A stretch of 64,000 bases of DNA from NCBI GenBank assembly GCA_946555465.1, contig CAMNST010000003.1:64226-128225 (forward strand). The letters run 5' to 3'. The DNA comes from an uncultured Clostridia bacterium. Lineage in GTDB: Bacteria > Bacillota > Clostridia > Oscillospirales > Acutalibacteraceae. Below the pieces are notes generated by a model that was not told the origin of the DNA, did not search any database, and saw nothing but the letters and a program-made list of their open reading frames with translations. Every line of letters starts with the position of its first letter. Position 1 is the stretch's first letter. Shown in pieces: positions 4,156 through 43,056 of this stretch. Position numbers and translations under genes: made by a program.

Positions 4156-5724
4156 ATGAAAACGAAAATTTTATCTACAAGTGAATATGACCTTGTGCTT
4201 GCTGGTGAAATTATAAAAAGCGGCGGTCTTGTTGCCTTTCCTACCGAAACAGTTTACGGACTCGGGGCAAATGCGTTTGACGAAAATGCCGTTAAAAATA
4301 TTTATCTTGCAAAAGGCAGACCAAGTGATAATCCGCTGATAGTTCACGTTTCAAAAAAAGAAGATATTACGCCGCTGGTAAAAGAAATAACGCCAAAAGC
4401 AAAGGCTCTTATTGATGCATTTTTTCCTGCTCCGCTTACTGTTATTTTGCCGAAAAGTGAAATGATAAACAATACAGTCAGCGGCGGACTGGATACGGTT
4501 GCGGTTCGCATGCCCGAAAATGAAACAGCACGAAGAATTATTGAATTTTCAGGCTGCCCTGTGGCGGCACCGAGTGCAAATACTTCCGGACTTCCGTCAC
4601 CAACAAAAGCAAAATATGTTATGGATGATATGATGGGCAAAATTGATGCAATTATCGACGGCGGTGATTGTGCGTTTGGTGTGGAGTCAACTGTGATTAC
4701 GCTTGCAACCGATGTGCCTGTGATTCTGCGTCCGGGTGCCGTGACAAAAGAAATGATTGAAAATGTTATTGGTGAAGTTGAAGTGTCAAGTGCGGTTTTG
4801 CAGGGTATGAAAGAAAATGAAACGGCTGCTTCACCGGGTATGAAATACAAACATTATTCACCAAAGGCAAAAGTTATTCTTGTTGATGCAGATAAAAAAA
4901 CGTATGAAAATTTTGTAAATGAACAAAAAAATGCTTTTGCACTTTGTTTTGAAGAAGATGATATCCATATTCCAAAGCAGACTTTCGGCAAAGAAAGTGA
5001 TGATTTATCGCAGGCAAAAGAACTTTTTGATGCTCTTAGAAAACTTGATGAAATGGGTGCGGAGAAAGTTTATGCCAGAATACCAAAAACAACAGGTGTC
5101 GCAATGGCTGTTTATAACAGGCTGATACGTGCTGCCGCTTTTCATATTATTGACCTGACCAAGCCGTTTTTTATTGGTTTAACGGGTCAGACAGGTGCAG
5201 GAAAAGGCTATGTCGGCAAATATCTTGAAATGCTCGGTTTCCATGTGCTTGACAGCGATAAATATGTTAAAAAAATTTATGAAAACAATCCTGCTCTTTT
5301 ACAGAAACTTGCCGAAGAATTTGGGCAAGATATAATAAAAGACGGTATTCTTGACCGAAAGGCGCTTGCAAAAGCCGCTTTTTCAAGTAAAGAAAATACC
5401 GATAAACTCAACCATATTGTTCATCCTGAAGTGATTTCACTTTGTGAAAAAGATGCAGCAGGTCTGACGGTTCTTGATGCGCCACAACTTTTTGAGGCGC
5501 AGGCTCAGAATAAGTGCAGCAAAATCATATCTGTTACCGCACCTTTTGAAACAAGGTTGAAGCGGATTATGCAGCGTGACGATTTAACAAAGGAACAGGC
5601 GCTTGAACGCATGAATGCTCAGTTTGATGAAGATTATTATATAAACAATTCCGATTTTGTTATTAAAAATGATGGTTCGGATATTAAAATACAAATCAAT
5701 AAAATTATGGAGGATATATTATGA
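4156..5724 (+). CDS. Fusion protein: L-threonylcarbamoyladenylate synthase (TsaC/Sua5, YrdC+Sua5 domains) fused to dephospho-CoA kinase (CoaE)
   Basis: The N-terminal ~340 aa are YrdC/Sua5-like (FPTETVYGLGANA, SANTSG). The C-terminal ~190 aa start with the CoaE P-loop IGLTGQTGAGKG. It is one uninterrupted frame. ATG 4156 is preferred over TTG 4150. Confidence 0.85.
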   Translation: MKTKILSTSEYDLVLAGEIIKSGGLVAFPTETVYGLGANAFDENAVKNIYLAKGRPSDNPLIVHVSKKEDITPLVKEITPKAKALIDAFFPAPLTVILPKSEMINNTVSGGLDTVAVRMPENETARRIIEFSGCPVAAPSANTSGLPSPTKAKYVMDDMMGKIDAIIDGGDCAFGVESTVITLATDVPVILRPGAVTKEMIENVIGEVEVSSAVLQGMKENETAASPGMKYKHYSPKAKVILVDADKKTYENFVNEQKNAFALCFEEDDIHIPKQTFGKESDDLSQAKELFDALRKLDEMGAEKVYARIPKTTGVAMAVYNRLIRAAAFHIIDLTKPFFIGLTGQTGAGKGYVGKYLEMLGFHVLDSDKYVKKIYENNPALLQKLAEEFGQDIIKDGILDRKALAKAAFSSKENTDKLNHIVHPEVISLCEKDAAGLTVLDAPQLFEAQAQNKCSKIISVTAPFETRLKRIMQRDDLTKEQALERMNAQFDEDYYINNSDFVIKNDGSDIKIQINKIMEDIL

Positions 5725-10372: not shown

Positions 10373-12725
10373 CGAAGAAGTATTGTTAAAAATATTAAAC
10401 GATAAAAACTTTTCAAATGAAGTGATTGCGTTTTTAAATAGTGTAATTGATGAAGAACTTGCCAAAGATGCCGATGAAATAGACTGTGATCTGATAGATG
10501 AATGCACAAATATGATTCTTGAAATCAAACAGTCTGAAGATGACGGACTTGCCGTAATTGTTCCGCTTATCAGCAGCAAAAAGTTAATTGCCAAAGTCAA
10601 TAAAACCGGTTTAAGAAGACTCAGCCGCGGTATGCAGGCTGCAGTTGTTGCCTGTATAATTCTCCTTTCGGGTTTAACTGCAAATGCTGCAGTGTATAAA
10701 ATTTCCGGAATAAATGTTGCAGGTGAAATTGCAACTGTAGTTTCTGAAAAACTTGAAGAATGGGGTGTTATACTTCCTAAAAAAGAAAGTTCCGATGAAG
10801 AATTGACAAGAGCAACGCAGAGAACGGCAACGACTGCCGAATATTCTGCCGTTTATAATGAAGTGTCATCAGACAGTTCTGACGATGAAACGATGAATAC
10901 ATATAGTTTTTACGGTAATGTCAGAGAAAGAACAACAAAGCCTGTAACGGATAAAGCGGTTGAGGAAACTGCCGGTCAAGTTACGCAGGTAACTGTTCAG
11001 GAAACCACCTCCGAAATAAAAGAACCTGAAACAAAAACCGAGATTCCGACAATGCCCGCTGTGACATATACACTCTTTCTTGATGCCAACGGCGGCGAGT
11101 GTGATGTTGAAAGTGTTCAGGTTCAGAGCAACAGACCTATAGGCGAACTTCCTGTTCCCGAAAGATACGGCTATGAGTTCAGAGGATGGTATAATTCAAA
11201 AATTTCGCACCACCCTATATTATCCTTTATTGCAACTGAAATAAAGCCGACAACGCTTTATAATTTGTATGAAAATGCAACGGTAACGGCAAAATGGGTT
11301 GAAGTTTGCACGATACACCTTGATATGAACGGCGGGGAGTGCGAGATTAATGAGGTTAAATGTGCTCTGGATAAAACGCCCGATCTTCCCACGCCGACCA
11401 AAGAGGGCTGGGTGTTTGACGGATGGTACCATAACGGTGTTCCGTGGAACGAATCGGAAATAACAGATTATGATAATATTGTATTTACTGCTAACTGGAT
11501 TCCTGATATAAGAACATGGGAAATGACTTTTAATCCTAATGGCGGAACATGTGCCGAAGAAAGTAAAATCATTACGCTTTATGAGCCGATGGGCAAACTT
11601 CCTGTTCCGAAAAGAGACGGATATCTCTTCCTTGGCTGGTATCTTGGAGACAATATAAACAGTGAACAGATAACCGCATCAACAATCCATAATGAAAGAA
11701 GCAATGTAAGCGTTAATGCAATATGGACAAAGGCAATGTATACCGCATATTTTGACGCAGCAGGCGGCGAATGTGCTGTTGAGTCAAAGAATTTTTATGA
11801 CGGTCAGCCTATCGGTGAACTGCCGGTTCCGACCAGAGCAGGTTATAATTTCAGTGCTTGGTATTTTAACGGAGATGCAATAGACTCCGACACTGTAATA
11901 AAATACAATAAGACCGTTAAATTAGAGGCAAAATGGGTTGCGGCATCGTTTTCTGTTGAATATAACGCAAACGAAGGTGTATTCAGCAGCGGTAAGAATA
12001 CGATGACAAAGAGTTATACCTATCTGAAGAAATACGGAACTCTTCCCGTTGCTTACCGCGCCGGATATAACTTCGACGGCTGGTATACAAAACCTGAAGG
12101 CGGAAATCAAATTTTGTCGAGTAACTCGGTGCTTATTACCGAAAACACAACCTACTACGCTCACTGGAGCGAACTGGAGGGGGATGTTTACACAATCATC
12201 TTCCATTCCAATTCCGTTTCCGATAAAATTGAGATGAAACCGTATAATAACGGTGATGAACTCGGAAATGTAAAACCTGCATCAAGCAGCAATTTCTGTA
12301 CATTCCTTGGCTGGTATACCGATCCGTATTTCGGAACAAGAATGAGCAATGACAGTGTTATTACATCTAATATGAATTTGTATGCACACTGGAGTCCGAT
12401 GCTTATGAGTTGTGCCATTGAACTTGAAAAAACCGTGTATGAGGTTGGTGAAGAAATAGATCCTGCAACCGTAAAATTCAGGTTTAAAGTGTGGAACACA
12501 ACGTACACATATACGGTTGAAGAACTGATGGCAGATGGCGGAAATGTTTACTGCAGATTTGTTTATGATACAAGTGAACCGGGTGAACAAACTGTCACGT
12601 TGATGGTGGCTATTGCAGACCTTGATACGTACGGCAACGTTCATCTTGATGCAAGAACAACGATTACAGTTGTTGAACCGTCAGATAATTCTGAGCAGGA
12701 AACCGCTTCGGAAAATAAGAATTAA
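10356..12725 (+). CDS. Putative membrane anti-sigma factor with six extracellular Listeria-Bacteroides repeat (Flg_new) modules
   Basis: The start overlaps the sigma gene by 17 nt (RBS ggaaaggag). One TM segment (AAVVACIILLSGLTANAAV). Six G[YW]xFxGWY repeats (GYEFRGWY, GWVFDGWY, GYLFLGWY, GYNFSAWY, GYNFDGWY, CTFLGWY). Confidence 0.75.
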   Translation: MAAFVNEEVLLKILNDKNFSNEVIAFLNSVIDEELAKDADEIDCDLIDECTNMILEIKQSEDDGLAVIVPLISSKKLIAKVNKTGLRRLSRGMQAAVVACIILLSGLTANAAVYKISGINVAGEIATVVSEKLEEWGVILPKKESSDEELTRATQRTATTAEYSAVYNEVSSDSSDDETMNTYSFYGNVRERTTKPVTDKAVEETAGQVTQVTVQETTSEIKEPETKTEIPTMPAVTYTLFLDANGGECDVESVQVQSNRPIGELPVPERYGYEFRGWYNSKISHHPILSFIATEIKPTTLYNLYENATVTAKWVEVCTIHLDMNGGECEINEVKCALDKTPDLPTPTKEGWVFDGWYHNGVPWNESEITDYDNIVFTANWIPDIRTWEMTFNPNGGTCAEESKIITLYEPMGKLPVPKRDGYLFLGWYLGDNINSEQITASTIHNERSNVSVNAIWTKAMYTAYFDAAGGECAVESKNFYDGQPIGELPVPTRAGYNFSAWYFNGDAIDSDTVIKYNKTVKLEAKWVAASFSVEYNANEGVFSSGKNTMTKSYTYLKKYGTLPVAYRAGYNFDGWYTKPEGGNQILSSNSVLITENTTYYAHWSELEGDVYTIIFHSNSVSDKIEMKPYNNGDELGNVKPASSSNFCTFLGWYTDPYFGTRMSNDSVITSNMNLYAHWSPMLMSCAIELEKTVYEVGEEIDPATVKFRFKVWNTTYTYTVEELMADGGNVYCRFVYDTSEPGEQTVTLMVAIADLDTYGNVHLDARTTITVVEPSDNSEQETASENKN

Positions 12726-25232: not shown

Positions 25233-25412
25233 ATGGATGTTTTGTGCGAAAAGTGCTGGTATAATACGTATGATGAAGAGACAGATGAAAGTTTTTGTTC
25301 TCTTGTTCTTGATGAAGATGAATATGTCAGATTTATGCAGGAGCAAAACAAAACCTGCCGTTATTTTCGCCCGGGCGGCGATGAGTACGACATAGTAAGA
25401 AAACAGAATTAA
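25233..25412 (+). CDS. Small Cys-containing protein (59 aa), below the ORF-track cutoff
   Basis: Translated by hand: MDVLCEKCWYNTYDEETDESFCSLVLDEDEYVRFMQEQNKTCRYFRPGGDEYDIVRKQN. The ATG lies 1 nt after the rlmA stop and a hairpin terminator follows. Confidence 0.45.
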   Translation: MDVLCEKCWYNTYDEETDESFCSLVLDEDEYVRFMQEQNKTCRYFRPGGDEYDIVRKQN

Positions 25413-26451: not shown

Positions 26452-26463
26452 TTATTCCCACTC
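26452..26463. repeat. att core, distal copy (attL/attR)
   Basis: TTATTCCCACTC, identical to 35105-35116. Confidence 0.7.
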
Positions 26464-26646
26464 GATTCAGGGTTTTGCAACCGTAACATTTTAGCACAGG
26501 TAATATTGTTCACATTGTCCCGGCTATCAGTATTATCTAATACCTATTGCCTATAAAATTTTCTGTTGCCATATTGTTGCCAATATTATAACATGCATTA
26601 GTTCAAAGTACAATAAGCATATTACTTCAATTATTATTAGATATAA

Positions 26647-28296
26647 TTATTGCCTCCACATGTCTAGAATTAATTGGATGTCTACTTCTTTCCATTGTTG
26701 TTTCCAAAGTTCGAAATATGGTATATCCGTTGAAGATGGTTTTGGATCACATTCTTCAATCTTGGCTATTGACGGCATTGCAACTGCATCACCGATTAAC
26801 AAGCATTCTCCAGATTTTAACGTTGGCAATTTATCAATTAACTGACCCATTGTGTCTGGTAATAACCTTTTAACATAGTTTTGGTCGTTTGGATTTGTCA
26901 ACCTCATCGCAATAAAGTTGTTACATTGAGAAAAAATAGTCTCGGATATTTCAGAGGGTCGTTGACTTGTAAGTAGTAGCGTAACGCCATATTTTCTACC
27001 TTCTTTAGCGATTCTTTCGATGGACTCTTTTGACGCTCTATATTTAGACAACTCACTATTTGGAACATACTTGTGAGCCTCCTCGTAAACCAGTAAAAGC
27101 GGAACATCGTTGTTTATTGTTTCATCTGGATTGTCGGTAAATCGTAGGGTTTTGTAGTAATATCCAAATTCAAATAACAATCGAGAAATCAGAGACACTG
27201 TGATACTCAGTACCTCAAACGGAATACCGCTTAAATCAATAATTGTTAAATTTGAACAAGAATCATTATAACCGATAAATTGTTTTATCGTATTTTCAAA
27301 TGTGATTCTCTGCACCTGTTCGCCCAAAAGAAAACTTAATCGAACATCGTTAATCCTATTTTCTAACCTGCTAATAAAGTTTGAAAGTTTTCCGTATAAC
27401 GGACCTTGTTTAGCTCCACTTCTTCCAGGAACAGTCTCCTCGTTTTTTGATTTTGCAAATTGAAGAACATCCTTGATATCAAAAATGATTGGAGTGTCAA
27501 AATTTATCTTTTCTTTTGTTTCTTGCGGTCCTGTAAAATGATTCCGTTTGCTTTCGATTACCGCTTCTTTAAAGACATTGCGTTGATTATGATCATTTGC
27601 TTCTGTGTCAATAAATAATTCTTGCAACTCTTCGCTGTTTAAAAGCCAGTATGGCAATACCATACTTGATACATCCAAATAATTCGCTTCTGGAAAAGCA
27701 GTTTTGTATTCAGCGTGGATATCAAATAATACGATATGTGAATTGTTAAGACCTTCATAAGTTCCCTCTTTTGATTCTGCTGCACTTTGAAGAATTTTTG
27801 CAACAGTATGTGATTTTCCTGAACCTGTAGAACCAACTATGGCGATATGTTTATTAAAGAATCTATTCCCATCAACAGGTATTGTTATATCTGGATTCGA
27901 TGACAGGGTTGAAAAATAAAATCTGTTGTTTTCGGGAATCGCATTAATATATATTGAATCAATATCGTTCTTTGTTGCCGGTTTTACATCTTTCGGAGGA
28001 ATAGCTATTGTATCTCCTCCTCTTTCAAAAAGGCCATCTCTAATTATTCCTAACGGATAAGTTTCTAAAATGTATCTACGATCTGCAGTCCCATCTGGGA
28101 GTTCTAAAGACTCAATAGAATAATTTTCAATAACGGCAAGCATCACTGCATTATCGTTATCAGCGATTCTAACATATGAACCAACTTTTAGCTTTTCTTC
28201 GGCAATTTGGAAATCTTCAAGTTTATTAACAAGTATCTTTATTTTATTTGGCAGAACAGAAACCACCTCTGCATTAACTATTTGTGACTCCTCCAT
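26647..28296 (-). CDS. HerA-like (DUF87/FtsK-HerA superfamily) ATPase, partner of the DUF4297 nuclease
   Basis: N-terminal HAS-barrel-like segment, Walker A IAIVGSTGSGKSHT, FDIHAEY, and Walker B LLLVYEEAHKY. The start is at an internal ATG with a GGAGG RBS that overlaps the upstream stop codon. Confidence 0.85.
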   Translation of the reverse strand: MEESQIVNAEVVSVLPNKIKILVNKLEDFQIAEEKLKVGSYVRIADNDNAVMLAVIENYSIESLELPDGTADRRYILETYPLGIIRDGLFERGGDTIAIPPKDVKPATKNDIDSIYINAIPENNRFYFSTLSSNPDITIPVDGNRFFNKHIAIVGSTGSGKSHTVAKILQSAAESKEGTYEGLNNSHIVLFDIHAEYKTAFPEANYLDVSSMVLPYWLLNSEELQELFIDTEANDHNQRNVFKEAVIESKRNHFTGPQETKEKINFDTPIIFDIKDVLQFAKSKNEETVPGRSGAKQGPLYGKLSNFISRLENRINDVRLSFLLGEQVQRITFENTIKQFIGYNDSCSNLTIIDLSGIPFEVLSITVSLISRLLFEFGYYYKTLRFTDNPDETINNDVPLLLVYEEAHKYVPNSELSKYRASKESIERIAKEGRKYGVTLLLTSQRPSEISETIFSQCNNFIAMRLTNPNDQNYVKRLLPDTMGQLIDKLPTLKSGECLLIGDAVAMPSIAKIEECDPKPSSTDIPYFELWKQQWKEVDIQLILDMWRQ

Positions 28297-28304
28297 AATA
28301 CCTC

Positions 28305-29492
28305 CTATACGATATCTATTGTATCGGTAATACATTCAATTGGTATTTTTATATGCTTGTAATCTGAACACTCATGAAAAACAGAATTAATATAGAACTG
28401 ATATATTTCTATTGTTGATGATAGCGAATTATATGTTTTGATAAGTAATGACAAATCATCAATTATTCTAAATTTAATCGGGTTGTTTGCAGCAGGTTCT
28501 TCTGTTATAGACTCGCACGAGAAATCAGCACCTTTGAAATCATATCCATCGGTAAATTTGATTTTCTCCTTTGCAAACGTTTTTTTTAATTCAAGAAGTT
28601 TTTTATCGTCTAGACCATAAAAATAAAAATATGGGCAGAATCTAGGTGATGATCGTTTGCTAAGCTTACTATACTTCTTTGATATTTGTAGTATTATGGT
28701 TTTTAAATCAACTATTGTAGTATGTGCATCACATTCAAATAAAAAGAATCTAGAATAAGGAGACAAATTCATATTGCTAAAATACTTTTTTCTAATAATT
28801 TTAGCAAACTGAGCTTTCCCCTTTTTATGTAAGAGCCACAATTCAAATTGAGCATCTACAGTTTTCAATTGATTAATAAACTCTTTTCGACTAATTGTTC
28901 TACTTGATATAGTCTTACCTGTTGCAAGTTTTTTTATAATAAGCAAAGCATTACAGTAATAAGGTTCGACATCTTGTTTTCTACATCCCAAGGCGGTGCA
29001 CAATTTGTTCTTCGCTTTGTCTTCCTGAGCTTCATAGCTCTCTGCGTTTATATTTATTCTTAGTTTTTTCAGGAATTTATCAATGTCTTCATCCGTTAGC
29101 CCTAGCTCATCGTGTAATAAGTGTTTTTGTTTTTCTTTGGTGTATGTAAAAAAATGCTTTTTTGCGAACTCCACAGTTAACGGCTTTAGCTTGTTTTGAC
29201 CTGATTTAAACACACCATAAACATAGTATTTATAATTTTTTCGTTTGTTTTTTGAGAAATGTATTAGCATCCATCGAATAGCGGGAGCAACTACGGAATG
29301 ATTGTATTCAGTTTTTTCATAGCATTTACACTGATGAAGAGAAATACTATCAATATCGTTTATATCAACATCTTCAATTCCCTCTATACAAATAGTATCG
29401 GTATCATTATTTAGTTCAAGCACCTTTATTAAGGAATAGTCAAACTGATAATAATATCCTCTTATTGTGCTTACTGCTTCTCTATCACCCAT
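28305..29492 (-). CDS. DUF4297 (Cap4-like dsDNA nuclease domain) protein
   Basis: The N-terminal GYYYQFDYSLIKVL...IEGIEDVDIN...LHQCKCYE matches the PD-(D/E)xK-like GxxYQ...E.xED...QxK signature of DUF4297. The C-terminal ~250 aa are unassigned. Confidence 0.8.
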   Translation of the reverse strand: MGDREAVSTIRGYYYQFDYSLIKVLELNNDTDTICIEGIEDVDINDIDSISLHQCKCYEKTEYNHSVVAPAIRWMLIHFSKNKRKNYKYYVYGVFKSGQNKLKPLTVEFAKKHFFTYTKEKQKHLLHDELGLTDEDIDKFLKKLRININAESYEAQEDKAKNKLCTALGCRKQDVEPYYCNALLIIKKLATGKTISSRTISRKEFINQLKTVDAQFELWLLHKKGKAQFAKIIRKKYFSNMNLSPYSRFFLFECDAHTTIVDLKTIILQISKKYSKLSKRSSPRFCPYFYFYGLDDKKLLELKKTFAKEKIKFTDGYDFKGADFSCESITEEPAANNPIKFRIIDDLSLLIKTYNSLSSTIEIYQFYINSVFHECSDYKHIKIPIECITDTIDIV

Positions 29493-29616
29493 AGATGTGT
29501 CCTCTGTTTCTTATGACTATCTTCTCTTTAATCTTCGCTTTTGCATTTTTTTACAAGATCTTGAAGTTTTGTGTAATTATCCATATCAGTATCACCTATT
29601 ACATTTAATTAACTTT

Positions 29617-29645
29617 ATTATAACAGAGTGTTATAATAATGTTTA
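29617..29645 (-). promoter_or_regulatory. Candidate promoter of the DUF4297-herA operon
   Basis: On the minus strand, an extended -10 TGT-TATAAT (29617-29625) with a weak -35 TAAACA 17 nt upstream. Confidence 0.4.
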
Positions 29646-30046
29646 AAAATGTTTTTTATGGTACGCTTTTTAGTACAGCTTACATTAACGAAGGATTTCC
29701 TTTGCTTCACATTAAAAATATAACGCAAATCCACTATATCTATGCATTAACCATTAAAAAATCCACATAAATATACAAGGTATATTATAATATCTATTAC
29801 TCAATAAGTCAACAAAATATAATATATTAATTAAATTGCTATGCATTTAACCCTTTCTATTATTTCGATATTTTCAATTTAAATCGACTTCAAAAAGTAA
29901 GCATTTTAAGGTTCTGAAACCCGCATTATTACTGCGTTTCAGAAAGTCAAAATCGAGGGGTCAAGGGTATATCATTAAAAACCTCAAAAGCAACTTCTAA
30001 ATGCTTACCTTACCAAACAGAGCGAGGATTGCTCCTCGCTCCGATT

Positions 30047-30310
30047 TTATGAATATGCCTCTATTGTTAGTCTTGCGCCTAACTTGAAACCAATTTTAAA
30101 GCAATCAAGTTCAACGACAGTTGCTAATTCATCGCTGCTTTTGATTAGCAAATCAAGCAAGTTCTGCTGCTTTTCACTAAGCGACGCCTTTAATTGTTCT
30201 TGATTAAGGTTATATGCCTCGACTACTTTTCTGTAATTTGAATTGCTTTCAAGATGGTCGAACTCCATTGGATTGATACTCCCATTCCAAAACTCCTCGA
30301 GAATATCCAT
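30047..30310 (-). CDS. Small conserved mobile-element protein (87 aa), function unknown
   Basis: Compact ORF 4 nt downstream of tnpV. The C-terminal FKIGFKLGARLTIE pattern resembles small proteins seen on clostridial mobile elements. Confidence 0.5.
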   Translation of the reverse strand: MDILEEFWNGSINPMEFDHLESNSNYRKVVEAYNLNQEQLKASLSEKQQNLLDLLIKSSDELATVVELDCFKIGFKLGARLTIEAYS

Positions 30311-30314
30311 TGCA

Positions 30315-30692
30315 TCACCTCGAATAAATCACTTCGTTATTGACAATCTCACTTGCTCTATTTGAGATATTATTCATAGCCTGAACCCAGGCGAGCATAT
30401 CGGTCGCCTTGAGATGTTCGGTTATATTTTCTTGTTCGGCTAATTGCTTAACGAGTGTATCATACATTTCGGTTGCTCTGACATCTACATCGTGCAAGTA
30501 TGAATTTAATTTACATTGAGTAAGCAGGGGTGTATAAAACGCTGGTTTATATTGTTTAATATACTCCTTATATTTTCTGCCCCAATAGCCGATTTTATAA
30601 TTCGTATCAGTTGATACGAGATTTGGAATATACACATTACCTACAAGCGTATAGCTAATGCCTGTGTTTTCGTCGGTAATATACTTTTTCAT
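30315..30692 (-). CDS. tnpV: TnpV-like protein
   Basis: The MKKYITDENTGISYTLVGNVYIPNL...IGYWGRKYKEYIK...AWVQAMNNI pattern is typical of transposon TnpV (Tn4451 family). The internal start has an aaggag RBS and overlaps the relaxase end. Confidence 0.75.
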   Translation of the reverse strand: MKKYITDENTGISYTLVGNVYIPNLVSTDTNYKIGYWGRKYKEYIKQYKPAFYTPLLTQCKLNSYLHDVDVRATEMYDTLVKQLAEQENITEHLKATDMLAWVQAMNNISNRASEIVNNEVIYSR

Positions 30693-30702
30693 AAAATTCT
30701 CC

Positions 30703-32082
30703 TTATCTGCATAGATCATCGTACCTATGTCTTGTTTTTTGCTTTGTAATAAAGCGTTTTTGTTGTATTGCTTTTTCAACTTTCATATTGTGTTTGATTT
30801 CATCGTTGTCCTCCAAAATGTTTGTCGCAACTTTAACTTCTTTTCGTAGCAAAGACAAAATTTTTGTGAAATCATCTCGCTTTGATTTTAGCTCTGCCAT
30901 AACACTCGGTTGTTTGCAATGCCTCATTTTGTTGTAGCAATATTGCCGCTGCTTTTCAACATAAATAATTTGCTCCTTTGTTGCTAAAATAAATTCATTA
31001 ACAGTCGAAATCGTGGTCAATTCTTTAAAATCAATCAATCGTATTTCTTGCGAATACCTGTCGATTTTTCTCCAAGCCGCCCTCATTTCAGGTGACAACG
31101 GTTTGTGCTGTTTTGCTTTCGACAAATAGCCTAACAAATAGCAGTAATGCAAATACAGTGCTTTAAGACCGGTTATTTTTCTTGTTATTGCAAAGTAACC
31201 GTTAAATCTAACTTTCTTTGAAGCAATATATTGGGGTTTTATTGATTTTTGGAATGTGTTAAATTTGGGAGCAGTTTTCCAAAAGTCATTTTCTTTAAGC
31301 GTTTGAAAAATATATTCTTTATCATACTTCTCACCCAACCGATAAAGTCGTGTGTTTCGAGTATCATTAACAGAACGAATTGTTGCATATTTCAAACCGG
31401 GATTGAGATTAACAATATAGCCTTGCTTTTTTAGCACATAGGTAAATTCTTTCGGCGAACAGCTGATACTTAACGCTTTATCAATCGCCTCTCGCATTAA
31501 ATTGTATTTTGTAGGCTCACCGTTTTTCTCTGCATAATACAAAGTTCTTGAAATTTTATTTTGTGGATTTGCAATTACAGTTAAGTGCTCACGCTCACAA
31601 AGCGAATCGGATAAATCTCTGAACTTGTAATATGCTTTCTTATTGCAATTAAATTTTTTGCCGTTCCACATATTGACCGAGTTAATTACAAAATGATTAT
31701 GATAAGTGCCTGTATTAAAATGCGTTGCTACAAGCACTTGATAATCTGTTCCCCACATTTGTTTTGCAAGTTCGACACCAAGCCTATGGCATTGTTCGGG
31801 TGTAACTTCGCCTGTCTTAAAACTTTGATATGCGTGGTAAGCAACATTACCTGATGTCTTACCAAAATGAACTTGAACATTTTTCATTTCTTCATAGGCT
31901 GTATCGGTATTGCAATTTACGCCTGTGACATAGCACGCTTCTTCACTGATTGTTTTTTCTCCGTTCTCGGCATAATGAATTGCATTTTTCAAATCAGAGT
32001 AAATTGTTTTGTCAGGATTAGCGGCATAATCAACAACACGAGACAGACTGTCCTTGATTGCCCAAATTTTTGTTACAGCCAT
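30703..32082 (-). CDS. Relaxase / mobilisation nuclease (MobA/VirD2-type)
   Basis: 459 aa. N-terminus MAVTKIWAIK... and histidine triad ATHFNTGTYHNHFVINSV. Confidence 0.85.
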   Translation of the reverse strand: MAVTKIWAIKDSLSRVVDYAANPDKTIYSDLKNAIHYAENGEKTISEEACYVTGVNCNTDTAYEEMKNVQVHFGKTSGNVAYHAYQSFKTGEVTPEQCHRLGVELAKQMWGTDYQVLVATHFNTGTYHNHFVINSVNMWNGKKFNCNKKAYYKFRDLSDSLCEREHLTVIANPQNKISRTLYYAEKNGEPTKYNLMREAIDKALSISCSPKEFTYVLKKQGYIVNLNPGLKYATIRSVNDTRNTRLYRLGEKYDKEYIFQTLKENDFWKTAPKFNTFQKSIKPQYIASKKVRFNGYFAITRKITGLKALYLHYCYLLGYLSKAKQHKPLSPEMRAAWRKIDRYSQEIRLIDFKELTTISTVNEFILATKEQIIYVEKQRQYCYNKMRHCKQPSVMAELKSKRDDFTKILSLLRKEVKVATNILEDNDEIKHNMKVEKAIQQKRFITKQKTRHRYDDLCR

Positions 32083-32333
32083 TATCCGTCATCACCGTAA
32101 CATGCGTTGAGTAATAGTTCTTTAATTTTATAAAGCCTACTGTCATTCATTTGGCAAATTGATTGATAAGCCTGTTTCAAATATTTATTGGGTGCTGACC
32201 TTACACTTTGACCTAATGCACACTTACGAATATACTCGGATAACGATAAGCCTGCACGCTTTGCATTTCTGCAAATATTTGATTTTTCATTTTCGGTTAC
32301 TCTGATGTTTATTGATAAATTTCTTTCTCTCAT
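32082..32333 (-). CDS. mobC: MobC-family relaxosome accessory protein
   Basis: 83 aa. IRVTENEKSNICRNAKRAGLSLSEYIRKCALG ribbon-helix-helix pattern. Its stop overlaps the relaxase start. Confidence 0.8.
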   Translation of the reverse strand: MRERNLSINIRVTENEKSNICRNAKRAGLSLSEYIRKCALGQSVRSAPNKYLKQAYQSICQMNDSRLYKIKELLLNACYGDDG

Positions 32334-32543
32334 TTGTTCTCCTTTCTTTAGGGGTTAAAGGGTACTCCCTTATTTTCCGGCAATACATTGCCTATGCTCG
32401 CTACAGTCTGCGACTGCAAATATACCCTTTGAGTTTGTCAGTTGCAAAACCTTTTATTTTCGGTTATAATATTAATGCTTTTATTAGCAGATCGCTTGTC
32501 ATCTGTTGCCGCAGATGAATCCCAAGCGGTCTTTTTTATTTGC
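32334..32543. other. Candidate oriT region
   Basis: Non-coding gap immediately upstream of mobC-relaxase. It holds several inverted repeats: aaagggta...tacccttt, ggcaat-ac-attgcc and cagtc-tgc-gactg. Confidence 0.3.
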
Positions 32544-32870
32544 TTATACATCCTTATCACCCTTCATTTCATAAAGCGTTTTGCTGATAAGTTTAATTGT
32601 TTCGAGAAGTTCCGCTGACGGTCGAGAGCCATTTAATGACTTCAATTCAATCAACACTTCTTCAAGTTTTTTCTTCAAAGCAACATAAACTTTTGGATTG
32701 CCGACAACAACAATATCTCTTTGAAGTGCTCGATTGATCAGGTAATCTTGCTTTGTCAAACCCGATAATTTAACTCTTGTATCAAGTTTATTGCTTTCTT
32801 CGGGCGACATTCTGAAAGCAACAGTTTTGTTTCTCCAACGGTTATGTTCGTCACGATTTTTAGCCGACAT
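32544..32870 (-). CDS. Ribbon-helix-helix (MobC-like) DNA-binding protein
   Basis: TVAFRMSPEESNKLDTRVKLSGLTKQDYLINRAL pattern. The internal ATG (MSAKNRDEH) overlaps the integrase stop by 11 nt. Confidence 0.6.
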   Translation of the reverse strand: MSAKNRDEHNRWRNKTVAFRMSPEESNKLDTRVKLSGLTKQDYLINRALQRDIVVVGNPKVYVALKKKLEEVLIELKSLNGSRPSAELLETIKLISKTLYEMKGDKDV

Positions 32871-33951
32871 TTTCAAATTCACCCCTTTCGTTTTCAAGTT
32901 TGCTTGCCATTTCGTCTTGCCTTGACGGAAACATATGAGCATAATGATATGTCATATCGACGCTTTCGTGTCCCATCCTGTCTGCAATTTCAACAGCAGA
33001 AAAGCCTAAATCAATGAGCAATGAAACATGCGAATGACGCAAATCATGGATACGAATTTTCTTAACTCCGGCTTTTTCACAGCCTGTTTTCATTGACCGA
33101 TACAACGCAGTTTTTGAAATAGGAAACAGCCTTGTATCTTTTTCTGCACCGTAAAGCATGCCGATATAATCTTGCATTTCATTGCAAAGAAACGATGGCA
33201 TTTTAATTATTCTATTGCTCTTTGGCGTCTTCGGTTCGGTAATAATATCACAACCGTTTATTCTTTGATGGCTTTTGTTAATCCTTAAAGTTCGCTTGTT
33301 AAAATCAAAATCACTTGGAGTTAATGCTAACAATTCACCCTCACGAATGCCACACCAATACAATAATTCAAAAGCATAATAATGCATTGGTTCTTCCATT
33401 TTTGCTTCGGTGAATCGCATATATTCATCCTTTGTCCAAATAAGCATCTCTCTGTCGCTTTCTTTTTTGCCAATTGCTCCTGCTTTTCTTGCAACATTTT
33501 CTTTAAGTCCGTAGTATTTAACGGCAAAATTTAATATCGCACTCATTTGGTTATGAATTGTCTTTAAGTAGGTTTGAGAAAACGGTTTTCCGTTTTCATC
33601 CTTTGCTTTAATTAACTTATTTTGCCAATTTATAATATCAGTCGCTTTGATTTCATTTATTTTTTTATCGGCAAAACACGGCAAAATTTTGGTTTCAAAT
33701 ATATGTCTTTTTGTATTTATTGTATTAAGTTTCAACTTTGTACCTAGGCTTTCAAAATACAATTCGGCAAACGAATCAAATGTCATATTGCAAGCACCTT
33801 GTAGCTTTAACATTTCTTCTTTTTCCCAAGCCTTTGCCGCTCTTTGAGTAATAAAGCCTCGCTTTTGCGTTTGCTTTTTCTCACCTGTCCAATCGGTATA
33901 TCTAAATACCGCTCGCCAAGTATTTGTTTTATTATCCTTATATACAGGCAT
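32860..33951 (-). CDS. int: Tyrosine site-specific integrase
   Basis: 363 aa. N-terminal SAM-like arm, catalytic-region motifs HDLRHSHVSLL and GHESVDMTYHYAH, and the conserved R in WCGIREGELLAL. Confidence 0.9.
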   Translation of the reverse strand: MPVYKDNKTNTWRAVFRYTDWTGEKKQTQKRGFITQRAAKAWEKEEMLKLQGACNMTFDSFAELYFESLGTKLKLNTINTKRHIFETKILPCFADKKINEIKATDIINWQNKLIKAKDENGKPFSQTYLKTIHNQMSAILNFAVKYYGLKENVARKAGAIGKKESDREMLIWTKDEYMRFTEAKMEEPMHYYAFELLYWCGIREGELLALTPSDFDFNKRTLRINKSHQRINGCDIITEPKTPKSNRIIKMPSFLCNEMQDYIGMLYGAEKDTRLFPISKTALYRSMKTGCEKAGVKKIRIHDLRHSHVSLLIDLGFSAVEIADRMGHESVDMTYHYAHMFPSRQDEMASKLENERGEFENVG

Positions 33952-33953
33952 TT

Positions 33954-34151
33954 TTATCCTCCTTCTGTTTTATCTGTGCAGTCAATTCTTTTGTAAAAAT
34001 ATTTGCGATTGACTCTGCCGGAAACAACAATTTTTTCTTTTTCGGCAAGTTCCTTATTTAGTTTTTTGATAATCTTATATGCATAAGACTCGGAAACATC
34101 AAGAACTTTTGCAACTTCGTCAACCCTCATAAAAATAGAATTATCAGACAT
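33954..34151 (-). CDS. xis: Excisionase-like HTH protein
   Basis: 65 aa from the internal ATG with a gaaggagg RBS. MRVDEVAKVLDVSESYAYKIIKKLN HTH. It lies directly upstream of int. Confidence 0.7.
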   Translation of the reverse strand: MSDNSIFMRVDEVAKVLDVSESYAYKIIKKLNKELAEKEKIVVSGRVNRKYFYKRIDCTDKTEGG

Positions 34152-34360
34152 TTTCGCACCTCCTTCGATTCTCACAATCACACAATATGTTGCAATTATG
34201 ATACTTATATTTATTCTTCGTAACCGTTTTGTTACGGTTTTATATTAACACCTTGCAATTCACTTGTCAAGAATAATTTCAAAATTATCGTACTTATTTT
34301 GATAATTTAATTTGACTTATCGTAACATATATGGTACAGTAATGTTTGAGGTGATGCTTA

Positions 34361-34969
34361 ATGGCAATCGGTGAAAGAATAAGATACATAAGAAAAAAGC
34401 ACAATATGACTCAAAAATATTTAGGTTTACAGCTCGGATTTGGCGAAAAGAACGCCGACTCTCGTGTTGCACAATACGAAAACGGCAGGCGTGAACCTAA
34501 AAGCGATATGCTAAAAGAAATTGCAGGAGTACTACAGGTATCAACACTTGCACTTGACAGTCCTAATCTTAATGACCATATCAGGTTAATGCACACATTA
34601 TTTACTATCGAGGATATTTACGGACTTACTATTGAAAGAATAAACGGCAAACTCTGTATTGTTCCTGATGAAAGCAGACCGGAGTGCTTTACCGGTTTAT
34701 ACGGTTGCTTAAACGAATGGAACGAAATAAAAGATAAAGTTAAAAACGGCGAAATGACACAAGGGCAATATGACGATTGGCGTTATAATTATCCCGAAGA
34801 TTTACCCGAAAATATAATCAATACTCTTGACCATTGCTGGGAAAAAGCAAAGCCGGAAAACAAGAAAAGAGAAAAGAACTACAATCCTTTCAATGAGCCG
34901 CAAAAAGACCTTTTAGCCGAATTTGAAAAAATCAAAAAAGAACACGCAGAAAAAGAAAGCAAAGAATAA
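34361..34969 (+). CDS. XRE-family HTH transcriptional regulator (element regulator)
   Basis: N-terminus IGERIRYIRKKHNMTQKYLGLQLG. It is divergent from xis-int, and the shared intergenic region carries repeated ttatcgta motifs. Confidence 0.8.
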   Translation: MAIGERIRYIRKKHNMTQKYLGLQLGFGEKNADSRVAQYENGRREPKSDMLKEIAGVLQVSTLALDSPNLNDHIRLMHTLFTIEDIYGLTIERINGKLCIVPDESRPECFTGLYGCLNEWNEIKDKVKNGEMTQGQYDDWRYNYPEDLPENIINTLDHCWEKAKPENKKREKNYNPFNEPQKDLLAEFEKIKKEHAEKESKE

Positions 34970-34973
34970 CAAA

Positions 34974-35012
34974 AGAGCTATCGGACTTGATGTCTGATAG
35001 CTCTTAGTTTTA
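34974..35012 (+). terminator. Hairpin terminator after the XRE regulator gene
   Basis: Stem agagctatc (34974-34982) pairs with gatagctct (34996-35004), followed by tagtttt. Confidence 0.55.
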
Positions 35013-35104
35013 TGTGAATATTATATTGTTGCCAAAATGTTGCCATTTTGGGTTGCAAAGCCCCCGAATGCCTGATAAATAAAGGCTTTCGGGAGTTATG
35101 TTTA

Positions 35105-35116
35105 TTATTCCCACTC
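35105..35116. repeat. att core, guaA-proximal copy
   Basis: TTATTCCCACTC is the reverse complement of GAG TGG GAA TAA (guaA ...E W E stop). Confidence 0.7.
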
Positions 35117-36631
35117 CACTGTTCCGGGGGGTTTGGATGTTATGTCGTAGACAACTCTGTTTATATGCTCAACCTCATTTGTAATTCGGTTTGATACTTT
35201 TGCGAGGATATCATACGGGATTTTTGCCCAGTCTGCTGTCATAAAGTCGTCTGTTGTTACGGCCCTGATTGCCACGAGATGGTCGTAAGTTCTGTGGTCG
35301 CCCATAACGCCGACTGTTTTTACGCATGGAAGAACACAGAAAAACTGAGCAAGATTTTTTTCATAGCCGTTTTTAGCCATTTCGTCACGAAGAACCCAGT
35401 CAGCATCCTGAAGGACTTTGATTTTATCAGCAGTAATTTCGCCGATAATTCTTACTCCGAGTCCCGGACCGGGGAATGGCTGGCGCCATACAAGTTCTTT
35501 TGGAATGCCGAGTTTTTCGCCGACTTTTCGCACCTCGTCCTTGAACAAATCGCAAAGAGGTTCGATAACACCCAAAAATTCAACATCTTCAGGAATATTT
35601 ACACGGTTATGGTGCGTTTTTATAACATCGGCATCACCTTTGCCGGATTCAATGCAGTCAGGATAAATGGTTCCCTGTGCAAAAAAGCCGAGTTCATCCT
35701 GTTTTCTGATTTCGTTCCAGAACACATTGAAAAATTCTGTGCCGATAATTTTTCTCTTTTGTTCGGGATCGATAACACCCTTAAGTTTTTCAAGAAAAAT
35801 ATCTCCGCAATTTACACGTACAAAGTTCATATCAAAAAGTGAAGTGAAGGTTTTTTCAACAAAATCGCCCTCATCTTTTCTCATAAGACCCTGATCAACA
35901 AAAACACAGGTGAGTTGTTTGCCGATTGCACGTGAAAGAAGACCTGCGGCAACAGAAGAGTCAACACCGCCGGAAAGACCGAGAATGACTTTCTTATCTC
36001 CGATTTCCTCTTTAAGTTTTGCAACAGTGTTTTCGATAAAATTATCCATTACCCATTCACCGCTGCATTTGCACACTTCATAGATGAAATTATAAAGTAT
36101 CTGCGAGCCGAACTGGGAATGCGTAACCTCAGGATGAAACTGAACAGCATAAATATTTTTTTCAGTATTCTGCATTGCTGCACATGGGCAGTCATTTGTT
36201 GTTCCGATAATTTCAAAACCTTTTGGAGGTGTTGCTATATAGTCGGTATGGCTCATCCATACAATAGATTTTTCATCAACTTCTTTAAACAGAACACTTT
36301 CTTTTGCAGTAAATTCAATTTTGCCGTATTCGCTGACAGGTGCTGTTTTAACCTCTCCGTCACCCATCCATGCAATCAACTGGCAGCCATAGCATATACC
36401 TAAAATCGGAACACCCAATTCAAGTATATCTTTTGTATAGTGAGGCGAACTCATATCAAAAACAGAGTTAGGTCCGCCGGTGAAAATAATTCCTCTATAA
36501 TGATTTTCCTTAATTACTTCGATTGGAGTTGTATAGGGAAGAATTTCGGCATAAACGTGGTGGTCGCGTACACGTCTTGCTATTAACTGATTGTATTGGC
36601 CGCCGAAATCAAGAACAAGAATTTTTTCCAT
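35105..36631 (-). CDS. guaA: GMP synthase (glutamine-hydrolyzing)
   Basis: 508 aa. GATase CYGCQL, the ATP-PPase motif SGGVDSSV, and a C-terminal PPGTVEWE. Confidence 0.95.
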   Translation of the reverse strand: MEKILVLDFGGQYNQLIARRVRDHHVYAEILPYTTPIEVIKENHYRGIIFTGGPNSVFDMSSPHYTKDILELGVPILGICYGCQLIAWMGDGEVKTAPVSEYGKIEFTAKESVLFKEVDEKSIVWMSHTDYIATPPKGFEIIGTTNDCPCAAMQNTEKNIYAVQFHPEVTHSQFGSQILYNFIYEVCKCSGEWVMDNFIENTVAKLKEEIGDKKVILGLSGGVDSSVAAGLLSRAIGKQLTCVFVDQGLMRKDEGDFVEKTFTSLFDMNFVRVNCGDIFLEKLKGVIDPEQKRKIIGTEFFNVFWNEIRKQDELGFFAQGTIYPDCIESGKGDADVIKTHHNRVNIPEDVEFLGVIEPLCDLFKDEVRKVGEKLGIPKELVWRQPFPGPGLGVRIIGEITADKIKVLQDADWVLRDEMAKNGYEKNLAQFFCVLPCVKTVGVMGDHRTYDHLVAIRAVTTDDFMTADWAKIPYDILAKVSNRITNEVEHINRVVYDITSKPPGTVEWE

Positions 36632-42408: not shown

Positions 42409-42504
42409 AAAGTCAGGGATGAATAAAACCTGACTGCCGGGATATAAATTTAAATAATTTGAAAGGGTATGATGTTGTTTCTTGCTATGTCATACAAGAG
42501 AAAT

Positions 42505-43056
42505 ATGAAACTATTATTTGTTATAGGTGATGCGGCTGTCGGTAAAATGACAGTTGGACAGGAATTGATGAAAATAACGGATTTAAGGTTGTTTCATAAT
42601 CATATGACGATTGAACCTGTTCTTGAAATATTCGGTTATTTCAATGAAAATGCTATAAGAAAAACCAGAGAAATCATATTTGAGGAATTTGCAAAATCAA
42701 ATAATTACGGAATGATTTTTACATGCATGATGGCGTTTGACAGTCAGAGTGATTGGGACTATATTGAACATGTTAAAAACATTTTTAAACCGTATGATAC
42801 AGAGTTTTATTATGTTGAACTTGTGGCGGCACAGCATATAAGGCTTCAGCGCAATGCAACAGAAAACAGGCTGAAAAATAAACCGTCAAAAAGAAATATA
42901 GAACTGTCTAATCTGCGTTTGATAAATGATGATAAAAATTTTCGGTGTGAAAGTTATGATGGAGAAATACCGTTTGAAAATTATATTAAAATAGATAATT
43001 CCGCGTTATCTCCTCAAACAGTTGCAAAAATGATTAAGAAACATTTTAAATTATAA
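42505..43056 (+). CDS. P-loop NTPase / small-molecule kinase-like protein
   Basis: N-terminus MKLLFVIGDAAVGKMT (Walker A). About 183 aa. No specific family recognised. Confidence 0.6.
   Translation: MKLLFVIGDAAVGKMTVGQELMKITDLRLFHNHMTIEPVLEIFGYFNENAIRKTREIIFEEFAKSNNYGMIFTCMMAFDSQSDWDYIEHVKNIFKPYDTEFYYVELVAAQHIRLQRNATENRLKNKPSKRNIELSNLRLINDDKNFRCESYDGEIPFENYIKIDNSALSPQTVAKMIKKHFKL

Follow-up and report, generated by a model that had tools for sequence, protein, structure and literature searches.

A DUF4297–HerA gene pair on a guaA-targeting mobilizable element that has lost a restriction–modification pair

A first-pass annotation of a 64,000-nucleotide stretch of an uncultured Clostridia bacterium (GenBank assembly GCA_946555465.1, contig CAMNST010000003.1, positions 64,226 to 128,225; the whole stretch is called the window here and is numbered from its first letter) singled out two tightly coupled minus-strand genes, a DUF4297 (Cap4-like) nuclease gene followed by herA, as a defence module that is the only cargo of a mobilizable element. 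Together the two genes reportedly emerged as an anti-phage gene pair from the 2020 defence-system screen of Gao and colleagues. The locus raises the question of whether the pair is an anti-phage system in its own right, and of how it came to be the cargo of its carrier. Our analysis gives a probability of about 0.88 to the reading that the two genes are a canonical DUF4297–HerA anti-phage system on an 8,653-bp guaA-targeting integrative and mobilizable element (IME) of a gut or rumen bacterium, whose cassette has lost a restriction–modification (R-M) pair by deletion.

Identity of the nuclease and the ATPase

The 395-aa product of the first gene fits the NCBIfam model NF042945 (DUF4297 family anti-phage-associated protein; 448.7 bits over residues 4–394, cut-off 300) and the PADLOC DUF4297 model PDLC02187 (1.3e-137 over residues 1–394), and a sequence search of the Protein Data Bank (PDB) aligns residues 3–394 with 8xav_G (1.4e-75, 38.3% identity, 149/389). 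The GxxYQ, ExxED and QxK signatures seen in the first pass are present as G12-Y13-x-Y15-Q16, E37-x-x-E40-D41 and Q54-C55-K56 and are family-invariant in the homologue alignment; D41, Q54 and K56 are invariant across 26 homologues. Alignment to the solved E. coli protein places D40, Q53 and K55 on these same three residues, all identical, and the hinge residue G224 on G225. The AlphaFold2 model built from the 26-sequence alignment (mean pLDDT 87.4) has two domains and a low-confidence hinge at 211–220. In Foldseek its top PDB match is 8zgi_A (E 2.5e-31), a crystal structure of E. coli DUF4297, and two chains that comprise only the C-terminal domain (CTD), 8xav_M and 8xaw_Q, superpose on it with a TM of 0.91 and an rmsd of 1.8–2.0 Å. 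Residues up to about G225 are the nuclease domain with its dimerisation helices, and residues 225–395 are the alpha/beta/alpha CTD, alias ‘UFO’. The first-pass annotation had left some 250 aa unassigned, as possible variant-specific sensing, and had proposed structure prediction to classify them; they are nuclease-domain helices and this known CTD.

HerA passes the NCBIfam model NF042944 (anti-phage-associated helicase HerA, HerA_antiphage_2) with 863.6 bits against a cut-off of 850, narrowly and in two stretches because its insertion, described below, is short. The PADLOC HerA model PDLC02188 matches at 3.5e-267, Pfam DUF87 at 4.8e-35 and, in the PDB sequence search, 8xau_A at 4.9e-206 with 59.1% identity (315/533). 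Walker A (GSTGSGKS, 155–162), FDIHAEY (191–197) and Walker B (LLVYEEAHKY, 401–410), likewise recognized in the first pass, are family-invariant. K157, S158, E426, E427, R455 and K456 of E. coli HerA (Walker A and B, trans Arg/Lys finger) correspond to K161, S162, E405, E406, R434 and K435 of the window protein, all identical. The profile matches and PDB alignments of the two proteins thus bear out the identity first proposed for the pair.

The mechanical open reading frame (ORF) of herA runs from 26647 to 28335 on the minus strand. Its true start is the ATG at 28296 (28296–28294), Met14 of that ORF, because the solved E. coli HerA and all homologues start there; the upstream in-frame ATG at 28335 was rejected on the same ground, and the GGAGG serves the ATG of Met14. 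The junction of the two genes reads ...ATC GTA TAG GAGG TATT ATG, with 8 nt between the DUF4297 stop and the herA ATG. The tight spacing claimed in the first pass is confirmed at base level, and since the herA ribosome-binding site (RBS) overlaps the DUF4297 stop the two genes are taken to be translationally coupled.

The clearest structural departure lies in HerA. Between window residues 287 and 290 the alignment has a gap, and 33 E. coli residues (284–316) have no counterpart. In E. coli HerA a helix-bundle insertion closes the base of the pore, and R284 and K287 within it contact DNA (An et al., 2024; PMC11291478). That insertion has about 43 residues, whereas the window protein has a hairpin of 10–12 residues at the site, predicted at 288–297 and carrying R292 and K296, which may or may not take the place of R284 and K287. 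A MAFFT alignment of 195 HerA sequences reveals residues 285–298 (DNA about 27403–27444) as a length-variable hotspot, with classes of 12–14, 23–25, 41–44 and 57–59 residues between invariant anchors. Of the 120 closest clusters, 100 belong to the short class, so the short insertion is a common feature of the clade and not an oddity of this copy. The three solved HerAs of the system have 571, 585 and 617 aa, all longer than the 549 aa of the window protein, and with a hairpin in place of the pore-closing insertion its DNA gating may be unlike that of all three long forms.

Solved DUF4297–HerA structures comprise 8xau–8xay (An et al., 2024), 8zgi and 8ziq–8zit, and 9c1m, 9c1n and 9c5x (Rish et al., bioRxiv 10.1101/2024.10.24.620088). 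The window pair shares with the E. coli system its gene order, domain architecture and full-length alignment, through the C-terminal hook region in HerA, together with the CTD fold and identical catalytic, hinge, Walker and Arg-finger residues. It differs in overall identity (38% for DUF4297, 59% for HerA), in its Firmicute host and in its position on a guaA-targeting IME, where an R-M pair once preceded it. In SIR2–HerA, too, the platform is a HerA hexamer, by which a dodecameric effector is activated, and its HerA chain 8j4u_M matches at 1.2e-25; however, that effector is a SIR2 NADase and not a PD-(D/E)xK nuclease, and the model NF042943 (HerA_antiphage) gives only 158 bits on the window HerA against a cut-off of 800. 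An N-terminal DUF4297/Cap4 PD-(D/E)xK fold is also found in Cap4 (a CBASS effector), the Avs3 nuclease domain and Lamassu LmuA. In Foldseek, Avs3, Cap4 and LmuA (8dgc, 6wan, 9nxx) match through the nuclease domain and rank below the DUF4297 structures, and the PADLOC LmuA model matches the 395-aa protein at 4.3e-14. Unlike the window protein, whose partner is HerA, Cap4 relies on SAVED/cyclic-oligonucleotide sensing, Avs3 on NLR-like sensing and LmuA on an SMC-like partner.

The family is already curated, structurally solved and mechanistically published, and the window copy is an ordinary, intact member. In a survey of 80 metagenomic loci with HerA 48–99% identical to that of the window, 70 of which have enough sequence for a DUF4297 call, the order DUF4297-then-HerA is kept in 59 of the 70. 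Neither of the two window genes is disrupted, and their pN/pS against the siblings that bear the R-M pair is 0.07–0.16 (small counts). The partners diverge unequally, the nearest non-identical HerA cluster being 78% and the nearest non-identical DUF4297 63% identical.

In the E. coli system, 12 DUF4297 protomers sit in two layers on a HerA hexamer in a complex of ~1 MDa; the CTD, which follows the Gly224 hinge, oligomerises and docks onto the HAS barrel of HerA. On assembly the HerA ring becomes flatter, and this activates ATP hydrolysis and translocation of double-stranded DNA (dsDNA); in the top layer, assembly also pairs the PD-(D/E)xK domains as dimers that form an active and non-specific dsDNA nuclease. 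Infected cells end up without any DNA, an outcome that amounts to abortive infection (An et al., 2024, PMC11291478; Rish et al., bioRxiv 10.1101/2024.10.24.620088). Defence is abolished by the nuclease changes D40A/Q53A/K55A or by HerA K157A (PMC11291478). By homology, 12 window DUF4297 protomers would stack through their C-terminal domains on the HAS-barrel face of the HerA hexamer in an assembly of the same ~1-MDa size; this would flatten the ring and turn on ATP hydrolysis and dsDNA translocation, and the N-terminal domains of the top layer would pair into active dimers that degrade phage and host DNA regardless of sequence. With the loss of both, the infected cell would die ahead of progeny release. 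Transcription of the pair probably starts from a TTGACT-17-TATAAT site about 290 nt upstream.

The carrier element and the deletion scar

The carrier is inserted at the 3' end of guaA (35105..36631, minus strand). Its ends are two copies of the 12-mer TTATTCCCACTC; the window has no further copy, and 0.01 would be expected. Among contigs with an identical GuaA protein, three have an occupied site (L089, L092 and L097, 99.97–99.995% identical to the window) and four an empty one (L093, L094, L096 and L098), where a 276-aa flanking gene follows 159 bp after guaA. The two flanks of the element match L093 at 99.5% and 99.7% and overlap there by exactly the 12-bp core, so the insert is 8,653 bp and guaA is kept intact. 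The element has a GC content of 34.2%, compared with 38.3% in the flanks. A tRNA-type integration site was considered and rejected; the window has no tRNA genes, and the target is guaA.

From guaA inwards the order is XRE regulator, Xis-like HTH protein, integrase, two NikA-like proteins, relaxase, TnpV, DUF6809, a 554-bp gap and the defence pair (Table 1). The integrase, relaxase and NikA-like genes, the att core and the empty and occupied sites substantiate the mobilizable carrier of the first-pass annotation. Profile searches found no type IV secretion system (T4SS) or coupling protein among the 10 element genes; lacking T4SS genes, the carrier is an IME and not an integrative and conjugative element (ICE). 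An inverted-repeat search of 32250–32620 detected no oriT. The element would integrate at the 12-bp core through its own tyrosine integrase and could presumably be mobilised in trans via its MobA/VirD2 relaxase and two NikA-like proteins. TGTTGCCA has five sites in the window, four of them in two pairs just inside the element ends, and these pairs are candidate arm-type sites; the integrase carries an Arm-DNA-bind_4 domain.

In streptococci, IMEs are known to insert at the 3' end of guaA (Coluzzi et al., 2017; PMC5357655). Those elements, of the Tyr_3 family, resemble the present one in this target, in having a short core repeat and in leaving guaA intact, and, together with TnpV-carrying mobilizable elements of Clostridia, in combining integrase and relaxase without a T4SS and in swapping modules. 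They differ in host lineage (here Oscillospiraceae-like gut Clostridia), and the likeness is one of target site and modules. Among 80 related species representatives, whose best GuaA match is 92% (metagenome-assembled genomes labelled Clostridia, Eubacterium or Ruminococcus), some 15–20 have an XRE-(Xis)-Int-NikA element inserted behind guaA with varied cargo, none of it DUF4297–HerA. None of the 80 showed an empty site with this synteny; empty sites came only from the exact-protein look-ups within the species.

The gap upstream of the DUF4297 gene (29493–30046, 554 bp, 28.9% GC) contains the trace of a larger cassette. By blastn, window 26452–29562 equals positions 11846–8736 of a sibling locus (L001) at 98.9%, and window 29545–30697 equals positions 4190–3037 of the same locus at 96.4%; nothing else exceeds 77%. 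The sibling carries a Type IIG restriction-methylase gene and a Type II methyltransferase (MTase) gene between these segments. In a three-way alignment with L001 the window tracks the start of the first gene to ...CTTGTAAAAA and then jumps to the end of the second, ...AAAAATGCAAAAGCGAAGATTAA; translation of the resulting small ORF, MDNYTKLQDLVKKCKSED*, gives the first ~12 codons of the restriction-methylase followed by the last codons of the methyltransferase. Retention of one gene's first codons and another's last marks the site as the product of a deletion and not as an insertion site. The element has lost about 4.5 kb, comprising both genes, via a microhomology deletion.

The remainder of the AT-rich upstream region is the likely cassette promoter and leader. 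A palindrome with 15-bp arms, AACTTTATTATAACA/TGTTATAATAATGTT, is possibly an operator, and a further inverted repeat with 18-bp arms lies at 29903–29953. A regulatory RNA or sensor, as the first-pass annotation had suspected here, was rejected: Rfam gives no match at E<=1 on the 554-bp leader, the leader folds no more stably than its shuffles (z = -0.80), and it is conserved only in near-identical siblings, with no conservation upstream of divergent four-gene cassettes.

Table 1. Features of the DUF4297–HerA pair and of its carrier element (window coordinates).
Feature	Position	Strand	Description
herA	26647..28296	(-)	549-aa FtsK/HerA-type hexameric ATPase, short-insertion form
herA RBS GGAGG	28301..28305	(-)	Overlaps TAG stop (28307-28305) of DUF4297 gene; read from sequence
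DUF4297 gene	28305..29492	(-)	395 aa; PD-(D/E)xK (Cap4-like) nuclease domain ~1-224, CTD/UFO oligomerisation domain 225-395
Scar ORF	29528..29584	(-)	18 codons; start of Type IIG restriction-methylase fused in frame to end of Type II MTase
Palindrome	29611..29643	.	Overlaps a second, TG-extended promoter-like site, upstream of scar ORF
Promoter-like site TTGACT-17-TATAAT	29784..29812	(-)	11/12 match; likely promoter of cargo cassette
GC-rich hairpin	30020..30041	.	Terminator-like; directly after DUF6809 stop, separates mobilization genes from cargo
DUF6809 gene	30047..30310	(-)	87 aa; PF20648 2.1e-18
TnpV gene	30315..30719	(-)	134 aa as called in identical contigs (L092); PF14198 3.1e-39
MobA/VirD2-type relaxase	30703..32082	(-)	459 aa; PF03432 3.4e-37
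NikA-like relaxosome accessory protein	32082..32333	(-)	83 aa; PF21983 2.9e-17
Second NikA-like protein	32544..32870	(-)	108 aa as called; PF21983 5.1e-13
Tyrosine integrase with arm-binding domain	32860..33951	(-)	363 aa; PF00589, PF14659, PF14657
Small HTH protein, putative excisionase	33954..34181	(-)	Weak HTH_17 match, 4.3e-4; assigned from position beside integrase
XRE-family regulator	34361..34969	(+)	202 aa; PF01381 4.3e-11
att core copy 1	26452..26463	.	12 bp, far end; homology to empty site and sibling elements breaks exactly here
att core copy 2	35105..35116	.	Identical to last 12 nt of guaA (GAG TGG GAA TAA on minus strand); guaA intact
TGTTGCCA repeat pair	26564..26582	(+)	3 nt apart; candidate integrase arm-type sites
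Second TGTTGCCA repeat pair	35027..35045	(+)	Just inside guaA-side end

Some further observations concern the surroundings. Gut and rumen Clostridia share an integration hotspot at the 3' end of guaA (loci L009–L088), and in L013 the slot after TnpV holds a 1,121-aa Type IIG enzyme. A second strain-level indel, at 42440–42982 (gene 42469–43056, plus strand, encoding a 195-aa P-loop-like protein), is present in the window and in L092 and missing from the otherwise 99% identical L093. A 59-aa DUF6472 gene (25233–25412, plus strand) between the genes for an rlmA-like methyltransferase and a 276-aa membrane protein is kept in all same-species contigs.

Four-gene siblings and alternative readings

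A 99% identical HerA (P0001) occurs on 14 contigs with another backbone, made up of Int, NikA, AAA_25, a Mob_Pre relaxase, TnpV and DUF6809. In this backbone the restriction-methylase and MTase genes lie between DUF6809 and DUF4297, and siblings that are 96–99% identical have both intact at exactly the place of the scar (L001 4151–8780; L107 3151–7780); the two genes encode a 995-aa MmeI-like Type IIG enzyme (PADLOC PDLC03604, 7.9e-266) and a 541-aa Type II methyltransferase (PDLC03267, 2.8e-183). L107 is a mosaic in which a window-type XRE-Xis-Int-NikA module (94%) is joined directly to the same leader from window position 29856, a short way upstream of the TTGACT-17-TATAAT site, followed by the full four-gene block; homology stops at the att core. 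Three backbones therefore share the same segment at 96–99% identity, and the mobile unit is the promoter-to-att cassette. The description of the pair as the only cargo holds for the sequence as it stands; it is a derived state, left by the deletion, and TnpV and DUF6809 are also on the element.

The block R-M, MTase, DUF4297, HerA recurs in L001–L008, L102–L104, L107–L111, L114–L119, L123, L133–L136, L141, L177 and L180. It is found in 17 of the 31 loci with at least 6 kb of upstream sequence, and in L001–L008, L102–L104 and L107 the four genes are co-oriented, adjacent and nearly abutting. Their identities fall in a correlated series across loci (99/68/55% for R-M, 99/71/65% for MTase, 99/54/44% for DUF4297 and 99/74/62–69% for HerA). 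The R-M pair is absent from 14 of the 31 loci and from all plasmid copies; the only plasmid copies of the nuclease are distant and proteobacterial. An Enterocloster genome has a different arrangement, with the pair lying behind a Type I R-M, AIPR and RhuM. Among the papers that could be searched, none links DUF4297 with Type IIG enzymes or HerA with MmeI, and none mentions the four-gene block.

Several sibling loci have peculiarities of their own. In L104 (6481–8985), whose HerA is 76% identical, DUF4297 is apparently split by an IS3-family insertion (rve, HTH_Tnp_1) into fragments of 101 and 321 aa. Downstream of herA, after the att core, all sibling loci carry AbiEi/AbiEii-like defence genes (L001 11846–14153), joined in L003 and L004, up to about 17972, by an HNH_2 protein and an AAA_13 ATPase; beyond them lies sequence 89–94% identical to the guaA-side arm region of the window (34971–35089). 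These post-core genes look like tandem accretion of elements, or remnants of elements, at one site.

The conservation of the block invites the reading that DUF4297–HerA is one half of a co-working four-gene system, of which the window copy is a crippled or functionally altered remnant. The close packing and correlated divergence of the four genes and the unmistakable scar would fit it, as would the fact that the trigger of DUF4297–HerA is not established; we nevertheless judge it improbable. On its own, the E. coli pair protects about 10^5-fold against lambda (PMC11291478), and in a published survey of genomic context no family other than HerA and DUF proved to be a conserved partner (Rish et al., bioRxiv 10.1101/2024.10.24.620088). 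Nearly half of the informative loci, as counted above, do without the R-M pair, and the R-M-less allele is intact, has a low pN/pS and recurs in at least three other samples. The simplest reading of the four-gene linkage is co-inheritance of a composite defence cassette. Functional cooperation of the two halves is possible but has no support; a specific form of it, in which DUF4297–HerA would usually be the distal half of a four-gene operon in gut and rumen Clostridia and restriction cuts in unmethylated phage DNA would give free dsDNA ends for the HerA ring to thread, seems unlikely to us.

Two other roles concern the pair itself. It might serve the mobile element, through addiction and post-segregational killing or through exclusion of competing plasmids and ICEs, in keeping with a cassette that always lies at an IME end and is swapped among backbones, and with the finding of no phage-borne copies of the nuclease. 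We regard this as very improbable: nothing like an antitoxin accompanies the pair, whose activity requires both proteins, anti-phage phenotypes define the family, and the species also has strains with an empty site, in which nothing points to a cost of losing the element. The archaeal HerA, a housekeeping repair protein that works with a NurA-like nuclease in end resection, has the same HAS, RecA and helix-bundle architecture (4d2i_A, 2e-24). A repair identity of this type is effectively refuted here, as the repair HerA models NF040937 (cut-off 800) and NF040819 (cut-off 970) reach 121 and 119 bits, HerA is partnered by a PD-(D/E)xK protein and not by NurA, and the two genes sit on a mobile element that varies between strains and is missing from others of the species.

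Against the identification as a canonical DUF4297–HerA system stands, at the level of sequence, a Pfam-A scan of the 395-aa protein with zero matches at E<=0.1, PF14130 (DUF4297/Cap4_nuclease) included. The first-pass annotation had staked its reading on significant family matches, naming PF14130 and DUF87; DUF87 and both PADLOC models answered, and with NCBIfam these matches are strong, PF14130 alone giving none. A precomputed PF14130 match is absent from most close homologues too, so, with NCBIfam, PADLOC and the PDB sequence and fold searches in agreement, the miss is a limit of model sensitivity. Other points concern function. The mechanism proposed here would be a transfer in its entirety from the E. 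coli proteins, at the identities given above, and even for these the in vivo trigger is not established (PMC11291478). Without the 33-residue stretch that includes R284 and K287, gating or DNA handling in the window HerA may differ. The closest relatives of the pair mostly sit behind an R-M pair, and its independence within this clade is an assumption.

Implications of the locus

As a defence system the window pair adds little: curated models, three sets of structures and a published mechanism exist, and current pipelines would recognise the two genes. What is new is that the element has lost an R-M pair that its sibling elements keep just upstream. The by-products of the analysis are a guaA-targeting IME whose ends are both fixed and whose empty and occupied alleles occur within one species, three mosaic backbones that carry one promoter-to-att defence cassette at 96–99% identity, and a base-resolved deletion that removed the R-M half and left DUF4297–HerA intact.

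The remaining interest lies in the two- and four-gene alleles, in the swapping of cassettes among IME backbones and in the short-form HerA, which is structurally uncharacterised. Natural alleles with two genes and with four offer a cheap route to asking whether R-M and DUF4297–HerA cooperate, a question that bears on what triggers DUF4297–HerA in vivo. If they did, the window element would be a natural R-M deletion mutant for a direct test of the coupling, and ends cut by the R-M enzyme would explain the in vivo trigger of an otherwise constitutively active, toxic complex.

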